This document shows positions 4,198-40,094 of a DNA stretch of 64,000 nucleotides, piece by piece. Position 1 is the stretch's first letter; each line of letters starts with the position of its first letter. A program made the position numbers and the translations under genes. Source of the DNA: an uncultured virus (IMG/VR IMGVR_UViG_3300029305_005063) (Duplodnaviria > Heunggongvirae > Uroviricota > Caudoviricetes); the IMG/VR virus record IMGVR_UViG_3300029305_005063; one strand, 5' to 3'. The notes below the pieces were generated by a model. It searched no databases. It was not told the origin of the DNA and saw nothing but the letters and a program-made list of their open reading frames with translations.

Positions 4198-4293
4198 TGT
4201 GAAACACCTCTTTACTAGTCAAGCTATAAGGTAGATTAGTAAAGTTCAATTTTATGACTTCTTTTATTTTGTCTCAGAAATAGGAGGTGTACT

Positions 4294-4419
4294 ATGCGTG
4301 CGTTATGTATAGCGCTGTCAGTAAGCATACTGCTCGTTTTCGCAGGATGCACATCGTCGTCGGATAAAGTGACTATCGATCACGATCCGCTTCCCAACAT
4401 GACTCCCTGGTGGAAGTAA
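4294..4419 (+). CDS. small lipoprotein (41 aa)
   Basis: AGGAGG SD; MRALCIALSVSILLVFAG|C lipobox; not in ORF track. Confidence 0.65.
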   Translation: MRALCIALSVSILLVFAGCTSSSDKVTIDHDPLPNMTPWWK

Positions 4420-4430
4420 GGAGGTAACCA

Positions 4431-5168
4431 ATGTGGGAAAGTATTAAATCCTGGTTCGGATCTGGAAGCACTTCAAGAGCTAACGACTATCGTCGTCACA
4501 AGCTTGCATTGCTCAAGCCGAAGAACCTCAACAAGTTCCCTCTGTTCAGAGCTTCTCCTGAAGGATTCACGGCTCCAAGGACTGTAGACCTCAGAGACTA
4601 CTGCCCTCCGACAGAGAACCAGAAAGACACACCTTGGTGTGCTGCATTCTCAACTTCTCACTGGATGTCCAACATCAAGTGGAGGATAACTGATAGGTTG
4701 CCTCTCTACAATGCTGAAGACATCTACAAAAAAGCCAAACAGATTGATGGATTTCCGGATCAGGACGGAACTACTCTAACTGCTACTTTACAGGTAGTCA
4801 GGGATGAGATGAAGATGTTCGATCCTAGCTGTGAGATCCAGACGTTCTACGGTCCGGATGGAGTTGAATCCATCAAGTACGCTATCCACAAATTCGGATG
4901 CTGTTTGCTCGGATTCCTCATCACTCAAGAATGGTACAACGTCACCTTCGATAACTCCGAGATTAAAGGAATCGATTCTCCGATACTTGGTGGGCATGCA
5001 GTACTTGCATGTGGCTACAACAAGTTCGGTGTTATCATCCAGAACTCCTGGGGTGAAGGTTGGGGTGAGTACGGTTACGCCATCGTGTCGTGGGATGCAG
5101 TCAGGAAGTATCTCCAGTATGGAGCTGTCCTCACTAGATCCCTCGATGGTCTTGCTCTTCCTAAATGA
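4431..5168 (+). CDS. papain-like cysteine peptidase (C1A family)
   Basis: VDLR, NQ..xxCAAF (catalytic Cys), GGHAV (His), QNSWGEGWGEYGY (Asn) motifs. Confidence 0.9.
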   Translation: MWESIKSWFGSGSTSRANDYRRHKLALLKPKNLNKFPLFRASPEGFTAPRTVDLRDYCPPTENQKDTPWCAAFSTSHWMSNIKWRITDRLPLYNAEDIYKKAKQIDGFPDQDGTTLTATLQVVRDEMKMFDPSCEIQTFYGPDGVESIKYAIHKFGCCLLGFLITQEWYNVTFDNSEIKGIDSPILGGHAVLACGYNKFGVIIQNSWGEGWGEYGYAIVSWDAVRKYLQYGAVLTRSLDGLALPK

Positions 5169-8404: not shown

Positions 8405-9445
8405 TTACTTCTTGGGCTCTTCGTTCGTGTTCTCGACCTTGGTCTGCTTGGAGTCCTCGGTCGTAGCGGCCTTGAGAAGCTTGTCAAGAGCAGCGCCAGC
8501 CTTCATGATGAGCGAGTTCTCAATGCGGCAAGCCTTGAGAGCAGCGTCCATTGCGGCACGCTTCTTGTTGACCTCTTCCTTCTTCGCCGTAGCGGCTTCA
8601 CCCTCGAGCGAACCAGCCTTGCCGGCCTCGTCGATGAGGAGCTTCATCGCCTTGTCGATGCTCGTCGCGGCGTTCTGGATCTTCTTGTCCGTGGCCTGCG
8701 TCTTGTAGAGCGTACGCGCACGGCTGAGGTTCGCAGCCGAAGGAGCGAGCTCGGAGAGCTTGTGCTCGGTGGGCTTGGCGTCCATGAGCTTCTTCGCTTC
8801 CTCGTCGAACTTCGCGAACTCCGCCGGGATCGACTCGGCAGCACCGGTCTTGCGGCTGAACTCGTCGACCTTCGTCGCGATCTGACCCGCGAGCGTCACC
8901 ATCGCCTGGATCTGGCCGAGGTCGAGGGAGACGAGCGTCTTGTCCTTGTTGAAGGAGAGAGACTGCGAGATCTGGTAAGCGTCGAGGCGCTTGACCCAGC
9001 GAGCACGGTTCTGGAAGAGCGTTCCGAACCAGTTCTTGATCTTGACCCAGAGGTTCTTCAGGAAGGCGACGAACTTGTTCCAGTACTCCGCCATCTTGCC
9101 CTCGAGACCAGCGCTGTACGTGGCCGTCAGCTGCTTGACCTGATCTTCACCGAGCGACTCGAGACCAGCGACCGTGAGGCACTCCTGGCCGACGCACGCA
9201 GAGACTTCGCCTTCGCTGTTGAAGCTGGCGATGTACTGCTTCGTGAGACCGCCGGTCTTGATGCCCTTGGCGCACATTTCGAGGTTGGCGAGGACCGTGG
9301 ACACTTCCTCAACGTCCGCGCACGCGCTGTAGAGCGCCTCGCTGGCGTCCGAGAGAGCGTTGATCGACTCGACCAGTGCCTCCTCGCTGCAACCGACGGG
9401 CTGTTTGACAGCCGCCTGCACCGAGCTTGTGGACAATTTAAGCAT
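8405..9445 (-). CDS. phiKZ-like internal head protein
   Basis: MLKLS start; GLE|S and GLE|G motifs followed by YWNKFVAFLKNLWVKIKNWF amphipathic helix typical of this family; highly biased codons; late TATG motif 9490-9497. Confidence 0.75.
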   Translation of the reverse strand: MLKLSTSSVQAAVKQPVGCSEEALVESINALSDASEALYSACADVEEVSTVLANLEMCAKGIKTGGLTKQYIASFNSEGEVSACVGQECLTVAGLESLGEDQVKQLTATYSAGLEGKMAEYWNKFVAFLKNLWVKIKNWFGTLFQNRARWVKRLDAYQISQSLSFNKDKTLVSLDLGQIQAMVTLAGQIATKVDEFSRKTGAAESIPAEFAKFDEEAKKLMDAKPTEHKLSELAPSAANLSRARTLYKTQATDKKIQNAATSIDKAMKLLIDEAGKAGSLEGEAATAKKEEVNKKRAAMDAALKACRIENSLIMKAGAALDKLLKAATTEDSKQTKVENTNEEPKK

Positions 9446-9526
9446 GGTTGTATACCTTACTTTCTGTCTTGAGGTTAACACAAACAATTCATAACATAGT
9501 AAGATTATTAGGTTAATTTACAGGTA

Positions 9527-10315
9527 TTAAACCCATTCATAACCCCAGACAACGTCGTCACCATATCTGTCATCCTCGACGGTTGTCCTGATCTTACCAA
9601 CTTCTTCAAGCTTGGTAGTCTTACTTCCCTGGAGGACAGTAAATGTTTCTCCAGCTTTTGGTTTCCAGTATCTCAGATAAGCCAGGATGGATGATGTAGA
9701 TGGAGAGCGTATTCCGGTATCGCCCTTCTTCAGAGCAAATCGAATATCTCCCTCTTCACCGAACGTTGCGGCAATCATGCTCTTATCGGGAGATCCAGAG
9801 TCAGTCCTTATCAACCCGTAGGAGTTCTTGACGTCAATCTTCTCTTTGATATAAGATGACTCAGTGATTGGCTTCATACGGTTAGCTGTAGCGTCCATTA
9901 AGTAAATCTCATTGTCGATGTTGATGAGATTGAATACGTGACCTCTACCTGACTTCCACGCACAGGCAATGATAGCACGAGAACCATTGCCCCAACCGCG
10001 CATCGTTTTGGTGATACTAGCGACAGCGTCTTCGCCGATCTTGGTAAATTTAGCGTTCTTAAACAAACACCAGTTTTGTATCGGGTAGGCGCTTCCTTTA
10101 GGTACGTCGAATACTCTATCCCACGGAGAGTTGGTAATCGTAACCTTCTTGTCTACTCCACGGAACTTAAGTTCAAGTGCTGCAGCAAACTTCTGACAGT
10201 TGTTGCTTACTTTGAATTTGCTAACTTCTGCAAGAAGCTTCTTGGCATGTGCCAGTTTAGGACTGTCTTCATCCTTCTTAGCCTCGAGAGCTGGAATCAT
10301 AAGCTTAATACCCAT
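9527..10315 (-). CDS. papain-fold toxin (Tox-PL, glutamine deamidase-like) domain protein with head-protein-like propeptide
   Basis: NNCQKFAAALELKFRG...GHVFNL...YLMDA gives Cys/His/Asp triad spacing; start MGIKLMIPALE|A behind AAGGAGG. Confidence 0.7.
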   Translation of the reverse strand: MGIKLMIPALEAKKDEDSPKLAHAKKLLAEVSKFKVSNNCQKFAAALELKFRGVDKKVTITNSPWDRVFDVPKGSAYPIQNWCLFKNAKFTKIGEDAVASITKTMRGWGNGSRAIIACAWKSGRGHVFNLINIDNEIYLMDATANRMKPITESSYIKEKIDVKNSYGLIRTDSGSPDKSMIAATFGEEGDIRFALKKGDTGIRSPSTSSILAYLRYWKPKAGETFTVLQGSKTTKLEEVGKIRTTVEDDRYGDDVVWGYEWV

Positions 10316-10394
10316 AATCGAATCCTCCTTATGAAATAGCACTAGTTTACACAAAAAGAAGACACCCCAAGGGGCGGTGTCTTCCGAGCCCACC

Positions 10395-10538
10395 TCAACG
10401 ATAGAGGTGAACTCTGTCCTCGATGACTGTGCCGACTTCGACACCATCAACGATGAGGACCGCCGAGCGATCATCGCCGACTACCTTGGCATCCATGCCG
10501 GCAGCAGTGAGGCGATCGAGCATTGCTTCGACTCCCAT
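10395..10538 (-). CDS. small hypothetical protein (47 aa)
   Basis: MGVEAMLDRLTAAG...; coupled to upstream gene, followed by terminator; not in track. Confidence 0.5.
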   Translation of the reverse strand: MGVEAMLDRLTAAGMDAKVVGDDRSAVLIVDGVEVGTVIEDRVHLYR

Positions 10539-10540
10539 TG

Positions 10541-11230
10541 TTAGTTTCCTTTCTTTGTGGGGTGGGTGAGTGCGAAACGCATCGTGTGCGCCCCGCTTGG
10601 AACACGGTTATCCGTGCGCGGCATCGTCACCTTTTCCAGGTAACTAGCCACACGGAACGCCGTGAAGATCTCGAAGCTGCTTGAACCTTTCAGCACCTCG
10701 TTCAACTTCTTAGCGTATTTACTCCAAGTAGGTGAGCGTTGTGCTGTCCTTACAGCGGAGAGTATCGACTTCGGAGACGGGAATGTCTCCGAAGCGAAGT
10801 ACTTCATCTCCGTTACGAGGAAGTTCACAGCATCAACAACGTGAACGTGAGTGATCACGTCAGCGTGTTTCGTAAGCTTTCCGTATAACAACCCACGAGA
10901 GATGATGGTACCGTGAAGGATACCATACGCCTCACGTAGAGCCGCTTCTTTGACGATACGAGCATTCTCCTGTTGACCAGCGATGTATTTGTCGCAGATC
11001 TCCAGAAGGGTCGTTTTCTCCTCAAAGTCTGGCCAGGCTTCGATCTCCCTGCGGAGAGCCTCGATGTCCTGCTGAGTATCGCAAGGGTTGCACTTGCGCT
11101 CCATCAGCAAAGTTCCGAGGTCGGGCAGCGCCTTGCCTAAGCGCACCCTACCTAGAGGGACCTTCCAGATGGATTTGTCAAATCCCTGGATCTTCGCCTC
11201 GCAGTCTTTGTAGTTGTAGCCTAAGATCAT
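10541..11230 (-). CDS. hypothetical early protein
   Basis: 229 aa; AAGGAG SD; ATATATTAC motif upstream. Confidence 0.65.
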   Translation of the reverse strand: MILGYNYKDCEAKIQGFDKSIWKVPLGRVRLGKALPDLGTLLMERKCNPCDTQQDIEALRREIEAWPDFEEKTTLLEICDKYIAGQQENARIVKEAALREAYGILHGTIISRGLLYGKLTKHADVITHVHVVDAVNFLVTEMKYFASETFPSPKSILSAVRTAQRSPTWSKYAKKLNEVLKGSSSFEIFTAFRVASYLEKVTMPRTDNRVPSGAHTMRFALTHPTKKGN

Positions 11231-11347
11231 TTGTATCTCCTTTTGGTTATGACTACAACGGTAATATATTTTCCATTCTGACAGAGAGACAAAAAGAATA
11301 TCCAGGTAGGGTCGAGCATCGAGCCCGACCCTACCGTGGTATCACAT

Positions 11348-11608
11348 TCACTTAACAGGTGCATCGCAGATTTTGCGTCTGACCATGAAGTCATACACAT
11401 CTCCGATCGTGTGCATCTTCTCGCAGTCTTCCTCTTCGATATTAATTCCAAAAGCTTCCTCTAGCGAAATGATGATCTCGACAACATCGAGTTCATCAGC
11501 CCCAAGATCTTCAACGAGGTCGGATGTAGATTTGATATTTTCTAGTCCGACACACACTGTGTCTTCAACTTGTGCGTTGACGATGGATTGCATCTCTTCG
11601 TATGTCAT
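11348..11608 (-). CDS. acyl carrier protein-like, attachment Ser replaced by Glu
   Basis: DLVEDLGADELDVVEIIISLEEAFGINI...TIGDV matches ACP except DSLD->DELD (GAA codon at 11492-11494). Confidence 0.85.
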   Translation of the reverse strand: MTYEEMQSIVNAQVEDTVCVGLENIKSTSDLVEDLGADELDVVEIIISLEEAFGINIEEEDCEKMHTIGDVYDFMVRRKICDAPVK

Positions 11609-11650
11609 GGATGTTGTCCCTTATTAAGTGTAACCTTCCGTGAACTATAG

Positions 11651-11731
11651 CTGCGACGAGCGGACTCGAACCGCCGGCGAGACTGTCCCGACTAGTGGGA
11701 CACGGTGCTACCTACAACACCCCCTATCGCA
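11651..11731 (-). ncRNA. tRNA-like RNA with aberrant anticodon loop (ACUAGUC)
   Basis: Cloverleaf: D arm GGUG/CACC, 6-bp anticodon stem UGUCCC/GGGACA, T arm GGCGG-UUCGAGU-CCGCU, acceptor with bulged A; no U33/R37, no CCA. Confidence 0.7.
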
Positions 11732-11789
11732 ACGTCAGACAATGGAATTCGGTCCATTGTCATTATCCTAGCCATTCTTTTTCCGACTT

Positions 11790-12340
11790 GTATACCGATG
11801 GCCAGTTATCTGACACGTTCAGAAACTAGATTTTCCACCAAGTACACTAGGCTCGTTCGGGCCAATGACGAAGCAGCCCACTTTCCTATACGATTAAGCA
11901 TTGCCTTAATTTTTAATGTTAGACCCAGGAGATGTCTGCACCTAGAGAATCAACTCTAGGTTAAGAGCGTTCACACGTATTCCTCATCTCCTACACACAA
12001 CCACAGCATAACCCAGATCCACAAGACCGTATCGATCCGTTCTCGTTTCGTTATACCACAATTGTGCAAGGGTAGCATAACCCTGCCTAGGTTCCGTCTA
12101 TTCTGCTAGCGTTACCCACAAGCCGTCCGGTTTCCGATCCGCCTGTGAACTAACCCTGTTCAGCATTACGTCTCTCAACGCACTTTGCATCCCAGGAAAT
12201 CAAGGCCCATGAGAGACTTTCACTCTCAACACCCGTAAATGGCAACAGGGCGTTATTTACCACAGACGTATTTGTATCCAATCGGTTGCCAATCGACAAC
12301 GCCTGTGCCGGAATAACTGTTACCACGTTCGTAGCAGTAC
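11790..12340 (-). ncRNA. large structured ncRNA (~550 nt), OLE-like candidate
   Basis: No credible ORF; ends pair (CAGUUAUUCCGGCAC 12319-12305 with GUGUCAGAUAACUG 11816-11803, extended by GUGGU/GCCAU and GUACUG/CGGUAU); many internal hairpins. Confidence 0.65.
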
Positions 12341-12405
12341 GTGCATGCTAGCTATCATGCGCGGTTACCGTGTTTTAACTAATGAGTCTACACTTGTTGA
12401 ACGCT

Positions 12406-13146
12406 CTACTTTTTCTTCCTCGACCTGCTTTTCGCAGCAGCGACAGCAGGTTGCTTGACGAAGATCTTGCAGATGCAAGGCTCGCCAATCTTCTTGTTCT
12501 CAAGGAAATCCTTGCAGTGACACTTGGTGTCAGCGGACTTCACCTGACAAGGGCAGTAGCCGCCATTCTTATCAATGGCATCGAGGATTTTGTTGATCTG
12601 AGCGACAGTCAACTTCTCGTTCAGACGAACACACGCAGGAACCTCAGGAGTGGGTTCGGGAGCAGGAGTCGGAGCAGGCTCTGGTTTGACGGGAGCCTTC
12701 GTGAAGACCTTCTTGAGGTAGCTGACCATGTTCTTCGCGCCAGCATCACCAGTCTTCTTGTTGCGGAGCGTGTTGCCGTCAACAGCCTGGTCGACGACGA
12801 TCTTGCCCTTGGCGTCGTAGAGAGTGATCCTGACGCCAGGATAATACCGCAAACCGGTTCCCTTGTAGATCCAGTCGTGAAGAGTCTGCCCTTTGTCCTT
12901 GTCTCCAGAATACTGGAACACAAAGTACGCATCCGACTTCTTCATCCAGTCAGTGAACGCCTTCTTCATCATGCATGTCTCTGCAGTGGTGCAGTAACCG
13001 CACTTGTCGCCGTTGGACCACATGGTCACGATGAACTTCCCGTTCTTCTTAGCAAGAGCGAGAGCCTTCTTGTAGTCTGAGTTCCAGACGCCTACAGTCG
13101 GCGTGCCGCTGGAACGTTGCTTGATGAACGTTGCCGTGGTTCCCAT
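12406..13146 (-). CDS. thioredoxin-fold protein fused to ferredoxin-thioredoxin-reductase catalytic-like domain
   Basis: N-term CGYC thioredoxin motif; PEP linker; C-term NGGYCPC...CHC...CIC pattern. Confidence 0.65.
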   Translation of the reverse strand: MGTTATFIKQRSSGTPTVGVWNSDYKKALALAKKNGKFIVTMWSNGDKCGYCTTAETCMMKKAFTDWMKKSDAYFVFQYSGDKDKGQTLHDWIYKGTGLRYYPGVRITLYDAKGKIVVDQAVDGNTLRNKKTGDAGAKNMVSYLKKVFTKAPVKPEPAPTPAPEPTPEVPACVRLNEKLTVAQINKILDAIDKNGGYCPCQVKSADTKCHCKDFLENKKIGEPCICKIFVKQPAVAAAKSRSRKKK

Positions 13147-13203
13147 GGCTGTTCTCCTATTTGTTGTGTTTATGTTACAAATGCAGGCTTAGTTTTTACG
13201 GGA

Positions 13204-13383
13204 GGGCGCCACACCTCCTAACTGGGACAACTCCCTCCAGATCCGCTCCTCATTGGGAACTTCACTGGAGAGATATTGATTTCATTATGGCGCCCAGCGC
13301 CCACGAGGGGTCGGCGCGTATGGGTGAATACTGATACCCTGCTGGTCACGGGTGGCCAACTCCTAGCAACAACGTATCAGCAC
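13204..13383 (-). ncRNA. structured intergenic RNA (two hairpin domains)
   Basis: GUGCUGAUAC/GUAUCAGUAU (13383-13328) and GGGCGCCAUA/UGUGGCGCCC enclosing CUCUCCAG/CUGGAGGG (13295-13204). Confidence 0.45.
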
Positions 13384-13392
13384 GCACACAAA

Positions 13393-13827
13393 TCATTTCT
13401 CTTCGGCGTAGCTGTCGACACCGAGATGGACGTGGAATGTTTTCTCTTCACCACCCCACTTGAAAACGTACTCAACATCCATGTCGCTTCCATTTGTGTA
13501 ATTCATACGAGAATCACCGCGCATTTTGTAGAGGAAGCTTTCGGTGCTGTTAATAGCAGCGTTCAGAAATTCATCATAGAGAGATTTGCTCTTGAACTTC
13601 AGAACATAGTCAGCACACCTGATTCCGAACGATCTGATATCAATGCCAAGCCAGTACGTCTGTCCAGGACCCTCATCGAATCCGTGGACGTTCGCCCACA
13701 TGAGGGCGCTGTTCGGCCAAGTGACAGTTTCATCGTGGATGTGATTGATCCAGTGTTCACTGGTGTTTTTCAGTTTCTTGGAGAAGATTTTCTTGATCTT
13801 CTGCCAGATAGTCTTGAGGATGAGCAT
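13393..13827 (-). CDS. hypothetical protein
   Basis: Start moved to MLILKTIWQ behind AAGGAG SD. Confidence 0.6.
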   Translation of the reverse strand: MLILKTIWQKIKKIFSKKLKNTSEHWINHIHDETVTWPNSALMWANVHGFDEGPGQTYWLGIDIRSFGIRCADYVLKFKSKSLYDEFLNAAINSTESFLYKMRGDSRMNYTNGSDMDVEYVFKWGGEEKTFHVHLGVDSYAEEK

Positions 13828-13996: not shown

Positions 13997-14392
13997 TGGT
14001 GGAGGTGGCGAGAGTCAAACTCGCGTCCGCTATGCAGCACCTGCACATTCGTTCACATGCTTAGTGATCAATTAGTCGGCTCATATACCAGGACGGCTAA
14101 TCACGACCTAACCTGATACATGTCGAGAGCATCGAGACCGCCTCTTGTACTAATCTAAGCTCATCTCTCAATACAGCTTAGATAGACCAGTGTAGATTAC
14201 CCTGAACGTGCTACTCTGATTCCTCGCACATCCAAGTAAGGTCTCGGGTTATACCCGGGCTGACTTAGGCAGCCGCCTTGTACTCAACGTGATTGTTGGC
14301 ACTTATGGTTTTGCATCCGTCGTTAAGGAGTAGGATACATCTCCTGCATGCATGTACATTTACCGTCACAACGTCGAAATCGGTTCACCCCC
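13997..14392 (-). ncRNA. ssrA: tmRNA; tag peptide (A)ANNHVEYKAAA*
   Basis: 5' GGGGGUG...UUCGAC, 3' CACCUCCACCA with G3-U pair; AUAAGU-GCC resume context; tag ends AAA-stop. Confidence 0.95.
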
Positions 14393-14415
14393 GTTGTTGA
14401 AGAGCTAGCTACTTT

Positions 14416-14553
14416 AACAGGTCTGCGCCACTAGACCCAACCGCACCTCACGAGGAGGGTTTGATATCGCCTGCGGCATCCACTTGTTGGGATGGGGCTA
14501 CCTCGATATAAGTTCGAGTGTTCAAGCCTGGAAGTTACCAGACATCACCTGCT
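14416..14553 (-). ncRNA. 6S-like rod-shaped RNA
   Basis: Nested stems AGCAGGU/ACCUGUU, AGGCUUGA/UUGGGUCU, AUAUCG/CGAUAU, CAUCC/GGAUG around a central bubble containing ACCCUCCUCGUGAGGUGCGG. Confidence 0.5.
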
Positions 14554-14569
14554 GATCAGGCAAGAGGAA

Positions 14570-14697
14570 GTAAGAGCTGAGCTTAGAGATGTGAAGGTCG
14601 GATCCTCTCCTGGTGTTACCCAGGCCGATACCCCGATGATCTAGTAGTTAATTATAATCGCACCTCACCTTGCGCTCAGAGCACAGTTGGCTCTTGC
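14570..14697 (-). ncRNA. second rod-shaped structured RNA
   Basis: GCAAGAGC/GCUCUUAC, CUGAGC/GCUCAG, GAGGUG/CAUCUC, CCUGG/CCAGG nested stems with an AU-rich bulge. Confidence 0.4.
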
Positions 14698-14919
14698 TCC
14701 AGGGTAGACGAGTTCATTGACTTAGAACGTAGTTAGACTGGTACCGAGAGAAAGCACGAAGCAAACTCTAAGTCCTCCAGAGATAGGTCGTTCAAGAATA
14801 GCCGGTTCGTCACACTCCGCGCTATCGAAATTGCGTTTGCGAACAACATCCGGCGCAAAACCGGCAAGAGATAACATCGTGACGCGTTAATGAAGCTACC
14901 ATAGTTGTCGATCGCGCGC

Positions 14920-15015
14920 ATTACCGACAAGGGAATCGAACCCTCCATTCAAGAACTCATACTCCCTAGATCCACATCAAGTACGGAGTCGAACCGCATC
15001 GGGAGTATTGTCACG
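14920..15015 (-). ncRNA. RNA with two T-arm/T-loop hairpins
   Basis: UGCGG-UUCGACU-CCGUA and GAGGG-UUCGAUU-CCCUU; first enclosed by AUACUCCC/GGGAGUAU. Confidence 0.55.
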
Positions 15016-15030
15016 ATGTTAAAGGTAAGC

Positions 15031-15822: not shown

Positions 15823-16750
15823 TGTCAGTTTCTCCTTGTATAGGCGCGAGACTGTACTTGTCCCTACGCCAAATGTTGAAATTCGGAACGGTGAACTCAT
15901 CCATGACGATGCCGCGATAGATGAACTGACCGAGTTCCTTGTGATCGACATGAGTGAACTCTACGTGACCTATGCGAGCATCGGTTATCATTTCGTTCAC
16001 TCTTCCGATGTACAGCTCCCACCTACCAGCTCGGAGGCAGCATGAGTTCTTCGGGTCGTCAACATCTGTGAACGGAACATCCTGGAGTAGTTCGATGCAT
16101 CCATTGCAGCCGTTGATCCTACCGTCTTCAGTGACGTCGATCGGGAACCCGTTCCACCACTCGAAGAAGTCGTCACGTCTCGCAACGCACTCCGAGATGT
16201 CGAATTTCGCATAAGTACCGGGTTTGTCCGGCACTTCGATGTTGAGACTCACATACGCCTCAGGGATGTCGATCTCGCGATTCAGTATAGCCTTGGCAAG
16301 CCTCTTGAAGATGTTGCCAGCGCCAGAGACACTGCCGCGATACGAAACACTCATAGACTTGAGAGGATACGGTTGAGTGTGAATGATCACAGGGTTGCAC
16401 TGGTCATCGAACTCAAACTCCACCAAGAATGTGTTGGTTTCGTTCTTATCAGCATCGAACGGATTGTCGCCGTTTTCAAGCTTGAACGGCTTGTTAACGG
16501 TGACACCTACTCGAGGCAGATGCGATCTGGCCTGCGCTACGAAGATGTTTCGGATATGAACGAAGAGCTCGTGCTCCTTGCAAGCTGCTTCATGATACTC
16601 GACGAGTATCTTGCGTTCAGCGACGTTGTCGTGTGAATCATCATCACCAATTTCGATCTCTAGCTTAGCAATGATCGCATCGAGTTTCTTCTCGATGCGA
16701 TCCAGCTGAGATTCCGGTTGTCCAATGACGTACGGAATTTTAAGCGCCAT
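15809..16750 (-). CDS. hypothetical protein
   Basis: 313 aa, overlapping operon arrangement, AAGGAG SD. Confidence 0.65.
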   Translation of the reverse strand: MALKIPYVIGQPESQLDRIEKKLDAIIAKLEIEIGDDDSHDNVAERKILVEYHEAACKEHELFVHIRNIFVAQARSHLPRVGVTVNKPFKLENGDNPFDADKNETNTFLVEFEFDDQCNPVIIHTQPYPLKSMSVSYRGSVSGAGNIFKRLAKAILNREIDIPEAYVSLNIEVPDKPGTYAKFDISECVARRDDFFEWWNGFPIDVTEDGRINGCNGCIELLQDVPFTDVDDPKNSCCLRAGRWELYIGRVNEMITDARIGHVEFTHVDHKELGQFIYRGIVMDEFTVPNFNIWRRDKYSLAPIQGETDNGQG

Positions 16751-22331: not shown

Positions 22332-23225
22332 TCAGAATGAATACCCTAAGCATATCCCGCCATAGTCGGGACGATGTTTCTGATGCTCGAACTCGCGTGT
22401 TCTCCATATTCCGTACCAGGAGAGGTAGAGCTTGTCGTATTGAACAACTATGCCGCCTCTTAACTCTGTTACGAATGGTTCTATGTCAACGTCGAGTCCG
22501 TCATCTTTGTGACCGAACATACTCCCTTCGAGGATGTGGTTGTACAAGTAGTACCGTTCTCCACAGCCTGCGAACACATAGCAGGAGAGTTTGTCCAGCC
22601 AGCTCCTGGAGTCAGGACTAGAGGCGCTGAACAGGATGTCGTTACCGACAGAGTGTCTCATGTTGTAACCTAGCTTGAGGTCACAGCCTATCTCTGCCAT
22701 ATCCTGTATAGTGCCAACAGCAACACCAGCTCTAGGGACTATAGCCAGCCAGTCTGTCACGTAGTAGTTATATTTAGTCCACCACTGACCATTAACGACG
22801 AACTCGTCGTGTAATTGGTTGTCCCATCCCTTAGGATCCTTACAGTCCAGGATCTTGTGGATGAACTTCTGTGTATGCTCGCATCCTGCACTAGGACCTA
22901 TAGCACCGAAGTTGATCTCTCCGTAGTGAGTCCACGGTGATAGCGGATCGTTGACGAACTCGTATCCGATACCTCCGATGAGCATACCACAGTAAGGTCG
23001 ATCACCTTTGATGTGTTCTTTGACACGGAGATCGCTAGGCGTGTACATGTTCTGGTTAACAGAATAGTGCCAGCGATCATCGACTATTTTAAGCCCTGTG
23101 CCATGACTGTAGTCATTATCTTGCTGCACAAGGAAGCAGTCGTTCTCCATGGTTAAGTACGCGTCCACCCCGTACACACATACACTTGCCAAGCAACAGG
23201 CAACAAATGTAATGATGTGTTTCAT
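22332..23225 (-). CDS. lpxR: lipid A deacylase LpxR family outer-membrane beta-barrel
   Basis: Signal peptide; END...DYSHG, QNMYTP, DRPYCG, GAIGPSAG..TQKFIH, PKGWDNQL motifs; terminal Phe. Confidence 0.85.
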   Translation of the reverse strand: MKHIITFVACCLASVCVYGVDAYLTMENDCFLVQQDNDYSHGTGLKIVDDRWHYSVNQNMYTPSDLRVKEHIKGDRPYCGMLIGGIGYEFVNDPLSPWTHYGEINFGAIGPSAGCEHTQKFIHKILDCKDPKGWDNQLHDEFVVNGQWWTKYNYYVTDWLAIVPRAGVAVGTIQDMAEIGCDLKLGYNMRHSVGNDILFSASSPDSRSWLDKLSCYVFAGCGERYYLYNHILEGSMFGHKDDGLDVDIEPFVTELRGGIVVQYDKLYLSWYGIWRTREFEHQKHRPDYGGICLGYSF

Positions 23226-30577: not shown

Positions 30578-30595
30578 TTCACCAGGGTAATATAT
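30578..30595 (-). promoter_or_regulatory. early-type promoter motif
   Basis: ATATATTACCCTGGTGAA. Confidence 0.65.
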
Positions 30596-30679
30596 TTTTG
30601 ATCTACTGAAGAGAAAAATAAAAAAGCAACGTACCCAGACGGATGAGCCGAAGCCCATCCGTCTAGGGGTAATCACCGC

Positions 30680-30943: not shown

Positions 30944-30999
30944 AGGATGGTTGTCTTAACCACCATAATTTGACTTATTCACCGAAAGGAGAACTAACA

Positions 31000-31764
31000 A
31001 TGAAACGTCTATTTTGTGCCCTGATTCTGGGCACCTTTATGGGTTGCGAGACCCCTGAACCGTGTGACCAGTGCACCCCTAAAGACCCCTCTACTTGGGT
31101 GGTCTGTGTGGGTATGGAGAACTCTCTGTTTGCAGGTCAGTGTCCTGGCGCTGAATACGACTGCAAGAGGATGGTTCGCCTCCTCGGTCAATACACGACC
31201 AACATCAACTCGTTCATCTCTTCCCAGGCGACTTACGCCAAGGTGAAGGCTGCTCTTACCAGAGCTGCTGAGAATGCTGATCTCTTCATCTTCTACTACT
31301 CCGGTCACGGCGGTGCTGCTGCAACCGGTAACAAACAGGAAGCCGATGGTCAAGATGAGTTCCTCTGTCTCTGGGATAGAGAGATGATGGATGATGATCT
31401 CTGGAGTATCATCAGCAAGTGTAGAGGCAGAGTTGTGTTCATCGCTGATTGTTGTCACTCAGCCACGATGTACCGGGCGCCTGCACCTATCACGCTCAAA
31501 CATGCAATTCCGTTGCAGGCTACGCACAATGTTGATGGTGCACTTAGTTTGATGGTATGGTCTGGTTGTCCCGATGACACCTACTCCTATGGCGATGCCA
31601 ATGGAGGCAAGATGACCAACACTCTCCTCAAGTACTTCAACCCCGATAAGTCTTATGACTACATCTGGAGTTGCATTGAGAACGACAAGAGTCTCAAGAA
31701 GTACGAGGAAGTGCAGCGTACTCTCATGGGTCCGAGGTTCGGATCCAAGAAGATCTTCCGATAA
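31000..31764 (+). CDS. lipoprotein metacaspase / C14 peptidase
   Basis: MKRLFCALILGTFMG|C lipobox; FYYSGHGG, EADGQDE, IADCCHS catalytic His/Cys dyad. Confidence 0.88.
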   Translation: MKRLFCALILGTFMGCETPEPCDQCTPKDPSTWVVCVGMENSLFAGQCPGAEYDCKRMVRLLGQYTTNINSFISSQATYAKVKAALTRAAENADLFIFYYSGHGGAAATGNKQEADGQDEFLCLWDREMMDDDLWSIISKCRGRVVFIADCCHSATMYRAPAPITLKHAIPLQATHNVDGALSLMVWSGCPDDTYSYGDANGGKMTNTLLKYFNPDKSYDYIWSCIENDKSLKKYEEVQRTLMGPRFGSKKIFR

Positions 31765-38405: not shown

Positions 38406-40094
38406 ATGCCTACACCAGCCAAGGCTGCAGAGCCATTCAACCTGGCATTCCTGGACCTTGACAAACTCATTAAAGACGAGAACCTCATGGAGGTCACGTC
38501 TGAGTTCATCAAGGAACCTTCCTCGAATCATTTCCATCATGAAGGTCTGTTCTCCGAGGAGATCTTCGGCCAGATCGGGTCCGAATCACGTCTCAAGCGC
38601 GGAGCTTACATCAAGCTCAACTGCCACGTCCTCCACCCGATCGTGTTCCAGAACCTCCAGGCAGTTCGCAGGTTCTACATCGAGATCATCTCGGGTAACT
38701 CGTATGCTGTCTGGGACAATGAGGAGAAGGATTTCAAGAGAGCTGCTTCTGACGAGCGTGGAGCCGACACCGGCTATACGTTCTTCATGAAACATTTCAA
38801 CCAGCTTGACCTTACCAAGTCATCCTCTCTGAAGCGCAACGACAGGATCGACGTGATCATGAAGTACAAGAACCTCAGGATCATCGACAAGATCTACGTC
38901 ATACCTGCCGCTGTCCGAGACATGAAGGAAGAAGACACGAGAATGGAGAAAGACTCCATCAACAAGCTCTACACAGGTCTTCTCCGTAATGCAAAAGCGA
39001 TGACACCTGGTTCCGATACCAACGCTTTGTTCGACTCTGTCCACTATCTCATCCAGCGTCGTGTAGTCGAGCTGTATGATTTTGTGGCGAACCTGATGTC
39101 TGGCAAGCACGGGTTCATGGAAGGCAAATACCAGCATCGCTCCATAGCTCGTGGTACTCGTAACGTCATCACTGCTTCTGATATGGACTGTGAGTCACCC
39201 GATGCTCCAAACGCTCACCGGATAGACGAGACTAAAGTCCCGCTCTTCCAGGCAGCTAAGGGTGGAGCCAACTTCATGGTCTACATGTTCAAGTCTCTGT
39301 TCTACGATCAGATCGTTAGCATCTCATCTGAAAATGTTCCTCTGATCAACCCGAAGACACTCAACCTCGAGTATGTTCCTTTGTCGGGTAGGGATAAGGA
39401 CAGGATGATGACATCAGAAGGCATCGAACGTACCATTGACAGGTTCCGTGATACTGCCAACCGATTCAACCCTGTTACAGCAGAAGGACCCAACAACCAG
39501 AGGTTCTATCTGTTCATGGTGTATGACGAAGGTAACCGAGTCTACATCACTCGTAACGTCGCTGAGTTCAAACAGAGGTTCGAACAGGCTGGTAAGAAAT
39601 ACGATCCTGAGAAGATGCGTCCTCTTACGAATGCAGAAATGCTCTACATCGTAGCCTTCCACGCTCTTAAAGGAACACACGCGACTGTCACTCGTTATCC
39701 CGTAACGGATGACCAGTCCATCTACGTGTCTAAGACACACCTGATGACGACTACTCCGTCAAGGATAGTTCGTCTGTGCCAGAACGTCGAAGACTCTGAA
39801 ACGGACATCATCCTTCCAGAGTATCCTGTTTTGAATGCGAGATTTGTCGATGCTGTGATGCTTCATCCTACAAGATTGAAGTCTCTAGCGGCCGATTTTG
39901 ACGGGGACACAGTAAGCTGGATTCCGATATTCTCAGAGGAAGCGAATGCCGAGTGTGAACGTTACATTCACTCTTCGTCCAACTACATTCTCCCGAGTGG
40001 TAACACTCTCTCGAGAATGGCGGACGACATTGTGTCTATGACGATACACGCTCTCACACGTGACCTTCCTGAGTTGAAAAAACAATCAGCTTAA
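38406..40094 (+). CDS. virion RNA polymerase beta' subunit N-part (phiKZ gp180-like)
   Basis: GLFSEEIFG, VLHP, GKHG..R, TRYP and catalytic ADFDGD motif; 562 aa. Confidence 0.88.
   Translation: MPTPAKAAEPFNLAFLDLDKLIKDENLMEVTSEFIKEPSSNHFHHEGLFSEEIFGQIGSESRLKRGAYIKLNCHVLHPIVFQNLQAVRRFYIEIISGNSYAVWDNEEKDFKRAASDERGADTGYTFFMKHFNQLDLTKSSSLKRNDRIDVIMKYKNLRIIDKIYVIPAAVRDMKEEDTRMEKDSINKLYTGLLRNAKAMTPGSDTNALFDSVHYLIQRRVVELYDFVANLMSGKHGFMEGKYQHRSIARGTRNVITASDMDCESPDAPNAHRIDETKVPLFQAAKGGANFMVYMFKSLFYDQIVSISSENVPLINPKTLNLEYVPLSGRDKDRMMTSEGIERTIDRFRDTANRFNPVTAEGPNNQRFYLFMVYDEGNRVYITRNVAEFKQRFEQAGKKYDPEKMRPLTNAEMLYIVAFHALKGTHATVTRYPVTDDQSIYVSKTHLMTTTPSRIVRLCQNVEDSETDIILPEYPVLNARFVDAVMLHPTRLKSLAADFDGDTVSWIPIFSEEANAECERYIHSSSNYILPSGNTLSRMADDIVSMTIHALTRDLPELKKQSA

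Follow-up and report, generated by a model that had tools for sequence, protein, structure and literature searches.

What is encoded by a stretch of about 550 nt on the minus strand of the tmRNA/tRNA island of a phiKZ-related phage, at positions 11790-12340 of the window (the whole stretch of 64,000 nt of DNA analyzed here)? A sequence-only reading had regarded it as a large ncRNA, either a divergent viral OLE RNA or a new class beside ROOL and GOLLD. As described below, the RNA is a large ncRNA of a phage that belongs to no catalogued family; it is of the ROOL/GOLLD kind and not OLE.

Genomic setting of the RNA gene

On the minus strand, the island is arranged in the order of tRNA-Met, an ORF-poor stretch, tmRNA, tRNA-Arg, two ORFs, the RNA, an atypical tRNA-like gene and the gene for an acyl carrier protein (ACP). 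The relevant features are:

13997-14392, minus strand, tmRNA of the same RNA island
12406-13146, minus strand, upstream gene for a thioredoxin-like phage protein of 246 aa whose tail is rich in Cys
11790-12340, minus strand, structured ncRNA gene of about 550 nt, with outer limits at about 11733 and 12400
11738-11761, minus strand, 9-bp hairpin between the RNA and the tRNA-like gene, read from the sequence
11650-11731, minus strand, atypical tRNA-like gene directly downstream of the RNA, called tRNA-Leu by ARAGORN
11348-11608, minus strand, ACP gene downstream of the RNA
8405-9487, phiKZ internal head protein

An RNA polymerase subunit, encoded at 38406-40094, shares 34% identity with phiKZ-like proteins (313 records), and a search found no relative of it in IMG/VR. 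The closest protein clusters of the upstream gene have members on contigs of up to 266-268 kb, and the runs with relatives of the window are mostly faeces, gut or sheep metagenomes (24 runs listed). The source is a giant, phiKZ-related phage of ruminant guts. Because the phage carries a gene for the outer-membrane protein LpxR (198.9 bits), its sequence points to a Gram-negative host. The host-like or otherwise unusual genes of this phage include those for the LpxR lipid A deacylase (22332-23225) and the ACP as well as those for a papain-fold glutamine deamidase domain and a caspase domain (9527-10474 and 30970-31764, in the order in which the genes are listed).

In the tRNA-like gene, the D stem is long, the anticodon stem has 6 bp and the loop is without the usual U33; the gene receives no Rfam tRNA score and 16.3 bits from the tRNA-Sec model. 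The tRNA-Met and tRNA-Arg of the window score under the Rfam tRNA cut-off. In the 9-bp hairpin, the pair is preserved despite a substitution at 11753 in relatives. After the ACP gene, a strong hairpin followed by a T-rich run (11290-11340, minus strand; z -4.3 in a 150-nt window), which was overlooked by a terminator scan, likely ends the island transcript. The sequence AAATATATTAC, which resembles the phiKZ early promoter motif, is found in two exact copies (11261-11271 and 30587-30597, minus strand); its chance mean is 0.42 and two copies are reached in 12 of 100 shuffles.

From 20 aligned homologs of the upstream protein, 7 viral and 41 metagenome loci were collected, with some contigs represented twice. 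The upstream gene is widespread without the RNA, which is found nearby in only one of these 48 loci, L079 (E 2.9e-5). The local alignment score for L079 is 68, compared to 26.4 +/- 3.7 for shuffled sequences, none of 300 of which reaches it. The gap of 1.2 kb that holds the L079 copy has no long ORFs and precedes an adjoining tmRNA.

Evidence for a structured non-coding RNA

With a folding energy of -190.3 kcal/mol (z -3.9), the stretch is matched by none of 100 shuffles; in a comparison of strands, z is -4.2 for the minus strand and -2.3 for the plus strand. All five hairpin sequences listed by the sequence-only reading are present on the minus strand where it had placed them, as is the stretch itself. 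Its description as free of ORFs does not hold literally, as ORFs of 84 aa (11705-11959, plus strand) and 58 aa (12150-12326, minus strand) overlap the stretch, but neither is kept in relatives: the 84-aa ORF is disrupted by 1-nt deletions at 11840/11841 in all four runs compared, and no counterpart of either ORF is found in L079. The covariation found in homologs (see below) and the lack of a conserved ORF both agree with the ncRNA call. The repeats that had been pointed out are within chance if one takes into account that any word could have been picked: some 5-mer reaches five copies, as UGUGG does, in 712 of 2000 shuffles, and 234 of 2000 contain a duplicated 10-mer. Both motifs are absent in L079.

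Similarity of relatives breaks at 12399-12413 in three runs, either by inserts (297 and 438 nt) or by divergence, and the 5' limit of the RNA is thus bounded there. RNA libraries make up six of the 24 listed runs; contigs of the two compared cover the RNA and the neighboring ORF alike, with a contig depth that does not rank one above the other. Overall, we are highly confident that 11790-12340 on the minus strand is a real structured ncRNA.

Selection and covariation in close relatives

The predicted elements of the RNA, all on the minus strand, are:

12307-12335, P1 terminal helix, 5' strand, with 11792-11814 as its partner
11792-11814, P1 terminal helix, 3' strand, from the substitutions of relatives
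12208-12306, 5' domain, in which P2 with its GAUU and GAUA hairpins precedes two additional hairpins
11903-12206, middle multibranch domain, from threading on L079
12206-12197/11912-11903, P5
12155-12197, arm H1, near-invariant 24-nt motif with a 6-bp stem and a GNRA loop
12115-12149, arm H2, whose stem is swapped in sequence and whose cap is the invariant CGGAAACCG
12090-12098, invariant junction GACGGAACC, identical in both lineages
12089-12085/11924-11920, P8
12084-12069, P9
12067-11995, long arm P10
11993-11926, arm P11, with a 7-bp hairpin at 11960-11941
11848-11880, 3' arm, 4-bp stem and 9-nt loop (L079 5351-5385, by eye)
11835-11850, hairpin with the self-complementary loop core GUAC, a candidate symmetric kissing loop

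Contigs of close relatives from four runs were aligned, and divergence was compared in three of them, with RNA pieces that include some flanking bases. In all three, the RNA region differs less from the window than the upstream ORF does: 23/762 (3.0%) vs. 68/744 (9.1%) in run 1 (Fisher p 4e-7), 35/837 (4.2%) vs. 65/787 (8.3%) in run 2 (p 9e-4) and 18/693 (2.6%) vs. 33/494 (6.7%) in run 3 (p 8e-4). The folded RNA gene is under purifying selection that is stronger than that on the flanking ORF.

Pair-by-pair comparison, which used 40 of the 204 differences (12 within the RNA), bears out the long interrupted helix that had been proposed to join the ends of the RNA. All six changed pairs of this helix are kept or improved, including a double change from A-U to G-C at 12332/11794, while competing local helices at the 3' end lose four of their eight changed pairs. 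A pair of P5 is broken by one shared substitution at 12202. The counterpart of P1 in L079 is assigned only by eye; a second diverged contig is similar to the RNA at its 3' end only (11763-11837).

A shared core and middle domain

The core shared with L079 aligns over 126 columns with three gaps. RNAalifold predicts 31 pairs in it, of which 12 are changed on both sides and none is broken; pairs were counted in the core only, as alignments outside of it are unreliable. A 22-pair structure built from the predicted helices of the window is 100% paired in both copies, with seven double changes, whereas slid controls are 32-39% paired. Outside the invariant stretches, the two lineages share little more than chance identity.

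For the remainder, the structure predicted from the window only was threaded on L079 by pairs alone, with nine anchors picked by eye, against segment-shuffled nulls. The score is reached by 1 of 100 nulls for the whole RNA, 7 of 100 for the core, 6 of 100 for all but the core and none of 100 for the middle domain without the core (3 of 400 in a repeat). Among the 101 pairs of the middle domain, 56 are changed on both sides, 32 are the same, four are changed on one side, six are broken and three are deleted. The resulting p of about 0.01 for this domain is optimistic, because gap costs were tightened after an inconclusive run and the anchors were picked by eye; at the cheap gap costs of that run, the scores were reached by 4, 20 and 14 of 60 nulls. 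Mapping the helices via a plain MAFFT alignment yields no excess (77 vs. 79.8, 91 vs. 91.0 and 100 vs. 98.8). On its own, the L079 copy does not fold better than its shuffles do (z +0.67), and it may be decaying. In this comparison, which at full length rests on two lineages plus variants, the pairing results indicate that 12206-11903 is the architecture common to both lineages, with the ends supported only in the lineage of the window.

The reading in which only this middle domain of about 300 nt is conserved, and its flanks are separate small or decayed tRNA-like elements, draws on the blind threading of the 5' and 3' domains on L079, where 20 and 39 of 100 nulls, respectively, reach the score and neither result is significant, and on the L079 segment opposite the 5' domain, which has a weak tRNA score (18.4 bits) and is of uncertain homology. 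We consider this reading quite improbable, since the terminal helix is maintained by substitutions in the lineage of the window and the second diverged contig matches the 3' end. Within the 5' domain, P2 has a predicted probability of 0.88.

Covariation also sorts the hairpins of the sequence-only reading: CCUAGAG/CUCUAGG and AGGAGAUG/CAUCUCCU gain support from it, but UGAAC/GUUCA and UUAAG/CUUAA are not kept in this form in L079, and the comparison favors longer helices that use the same bases. The GNRA loop of H1 is GAGA in the window and GGGA in L079. The 7-bp helix of H2, predicted from the window alone, has six of its seven pairs changed on both sides in L079. A candidate 5-bp pseudoknot between 12262-12266 and 12093-12097 can form all five pairs in both lineages, with one one-sided change.

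Such frozen elements could also mark protein-binding sites. The RNA would then be a scaffold or decoy, i.e., a monomeric ribonucleoprotein in which the H1 motif, CGGAAACCG and GACGGAACC bind a phage or host protein, for example a defence nuclease or a translation factor. In H1, it is the sequence itself, and not pairing alone, that is frozen across lineages; a patchy distribution would suit an accessory counter-defence gene, and there is a precedent in OLE, which works with protein partners (PMC12054373). We nevertheless consider this reading unlikely, because no partner gene travels with the RNA in the two loci, between which no protein neighbor beyond the island genes is constant, and RNA tertiary contacts explain the frozen bases equally well.

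The loop core at 11842-11845 is palindromic in all three variants compared: GUAC in the window, GCGC in the diverged contig and UGCA in L079. One of these variants was read from the loose end, 30 letters long, of a contig of depth 4, another was aligned by eye, and a 4-mer is palindromic by chance 1 in 16 times. The palindromic loop hints at dimer contacts.

Comparison with known RNA families

The RNA is absent from Rfam 15, no family of which matches the stretch at the gathering threshold or at E<=10. At the latter cut-off, a search of 4227 Rfam families yields no match to RNase P, group I or group II introns or HEARO in either the window or L079, and the GOLLD model gives no score in either. 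The earlier suggestion of a large structured ncRNA, possibly of a new class beside ROOL and GOLLD, is supported.

The Rfam search also bears on whether the RNA is a ribozyme or ribozyme-derived domain, such as an RNase P-like, tRNA-processing RNA or the core of a permuted intron of group I or II, that acts on tRNA precursors of the island. The size, the frozen core and the possible 5-bp pseudoknot would fit such a role, as would the several atypical tRNA-like genes of the island, and the RNA bears short resemblances to RNase P and intron motifs. Given that the RNase P, group I and group II models remain unmatched in both copies, that the GUGAAAGUC hairpin is not kept in L079 and that the RNA interrupts no gene and has no intron ORF, a ribozyme is rather improbable. 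A reading of the GUGAAAGUC hairpin as group II D5 and a reading as a permuted group I intron, both by comparison with consensus sequences, were dropped, because their motifs are not kept in L079 and receive no model score.

A virus carrying OLE is not supported. The OLE model (RF01071) gives no score at the gathering threshold or at E<=10 in the window or L079. Among the motifs that had been named as OLE-like, the two long ones are absent from the OLE RNA of Clostridium acetobutylicum as given in PMC12286853, and AGUGCG and GGAAAA are there in reversed order, as judged by string search and reading by eye of this one OLE sequence. The main one of these motifs, ATTGGATAC-N4-7-CGTCTGTGGT, is found in four stretches in 185,579 GTDB genomes; no title among them names Bacillota, and no stretch resembles the RNA. 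OLE itself is reported in 2,846 GTDB R214 assemblies, 2,822 of them of Bacillota, where it is chromosomal and next to a membrane-protein gene (PMC11332333). The RNA shares with OLE the size (about 600 nt), ends joined in a long helix and a palindromic loop, which in OLE makes a dimer contact (PMC12286853), but it is phage-borne and its neighbors encode a thioredoxin-like protein and ACP rather than a membrane protein. That no oapA-like gene is visible had been noticed before, and no OapA-named family is found among the 23 (Pfam) and 52 (NCBIfam) proteins scanned in the 64-kb window.

As described in PMC12286853, ROOL and GOLLD are encoded near phage tRNA islands and form 8- and 14-mers, respectively, and palindromic kissing loops covary in OLE (bridge B3) and GOLLD (B8). 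ROOL (RF03087) is there about 550-660 nt long, phage-encoded near tRNA islands and of rumen source, with no known protein partner; the RNA described here is likewise phage-encoded, near a tRNA island and of this size. The window contains look-alikes of ROOL, a G-GAUA-C hairpin and AAUAGACG, of which L079 keeps only part. The ruminant-gut phage, the tRNA island, the equal size and these short look-alikes of the consensus could indicate a very diverged ROOL (or OLE) that is missed by the Rfam models. However, the ROOL model detects the ROOL of L. salivarius plasmid pMP118 with 130.4 bits and gives no covariance-model score for the present RNA. Alignment to this real ROOL, a single and itself divergent one, is at background (scores of 27 and 24 vs. 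null means of 26, reached by 108 and 218 of 300 shuffles), the core model of the present RNA does not match it, and the ROOL consensus has, by eye, no counterpart of the H1/H2 core. We therefore regard a missed ROOL or OLE as very improbable. The octameric cage of ROOL is demonstrated, while the present RNA has a candidate palindromic loop.

Like the present RNA, GOLLD comes from phage tRNA islands, has a conserved and a variable domain and may include tRNA-like parts (PMC12286853). It is usually longer than 800 nt, and its conserved part is the 3' domain, whereas that of the present RNA is the middle. In sum, the RNA matches no catalogued family, and its closest resemblance is to ROOL and GOLLD, phage RNAs that self-assemble.

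Distribution

Searches of GenBank phages and plasmids by blastn found no homolog with the RNA of the window and only short tRNA-like or chance matches with the L079 copy. Motif scans of IMG/VR returned 9, 1, 11, 14 and 4 stretches, none of which is a homolog by nhmmer or reading, and a motif scan of metagenome contigs returned no match. The whole records G002-G004 contain no homolog by blastn and nhmmer; a 31-nt match in G003 was rejected as it lies within a coding gene. A sequence pattern run over eight virus records gave one match, with three mismatches. Over 72 sources, the core model R1 matched its two training copies and, weakly, three other stretches (E 0.008-0.75), the best two of which were rejected as homologs, both being inside coding genes. 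A hairpin at 16169-16195 (minus strand) is H1-like and has a GCGA loop; located within a coding gene, it scores 17.9 bits (E roughly 0.008) and may be due to chance.

The core model matches none of the five other records with the upstream gene, three of which are complete, though their kinship to the window is not established as close and G003 shares few genes with it. Consequently, the RNA is accessory, and its distribution is patchy. No description of the RNA was found in the literature searched, which was mostly open-access, and a string search of six files from the supplement of PMC10690425 gave no match.

Other RNAs in the tRNA islands

A second uncatalogued structured RNA lies just upstream of the tmRNA in both lineages (window 14398-14600, minus strand; L079 2612-2812). 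The two copies are homologous at E 8.6e-16, and 13 of its 37 predicted pairs are changed on both sides; it has no fitting Rfam match, and its single-sequence folding is not above that of shuffles. ORF-poor stretches with T-arm-like hairpins (window 14660-15030, minus strand; L079 4452-4900 and 5460-5679; z -1.9) probably represent tRNAs that have decayed, or other RNAs. ORF-poor stretches are also present at 4290-4730 and 1630-1930 of a locus from a related phage, in its tRNA island, neither with a fitting Rfam match; the former has paired ends around about 250 nt (z -1.4) and is not homologous to the present RNA.

The RNA could be one of at least two uncatalogued structured RNAs of the island and represent a new large-RNA class unrelated to OLE, ROOL and GOLLD, used by phiKZ-related gut phages as a self-assembling, RNA-only particle or as a new ribozyme that processes or shelters their atypical tRNAs and their tmRNA. 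We consider this possible but somewhat doubtful.

Proposed mechanism and significance

Our tentative preference, held with a little less than even confidence, is for a ROOL/GOLLD-like, self-assembling structural RNA that would be trans-acting and non-coding and belong to an uncatalogued family. On this ROOL/GOLLD-like model, the RNA would be cut from a long island transcript by tRNA-processing enzymes of the host. Release from a long transcript is suggested because the terminator scan gave no terminator-like site in 11200-13400 and the tRNA-like gene directly follows the RNA; RNase P cleavage before this gene would free the 3' end of the RNA, and the terminal helix would protect both ends. The long arms may then pack via contacts of the GNRA loop (GAGA/GGGA) and possibly of the pseudoknot, and copies may associate via the self-complementary loop to give a dimer or a cage, in the manner of OLE, ROOL and GOLLD. 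Most speculatively, the particle might accumulate during infection and serve as a scaffold or shelter for the translation-support RNAs of the phage (tRNAs and tmRNA) or as a nuclease-resistant decoy.

Large RNAs with such frozen cores are, to our knowledge, rare in bacteria and phages; those described act as ribozymes, belong to core machines or form the RNA-only dimers and cages whose structures were solved recently. With an independent family from a phiKZ-related phage, there would be a further test of whether the formation of cages or dimers is general for RNAs of tRNA islands, and the palindromic loop at 11842-11845 offers a concrete and testable prediction for self-association.
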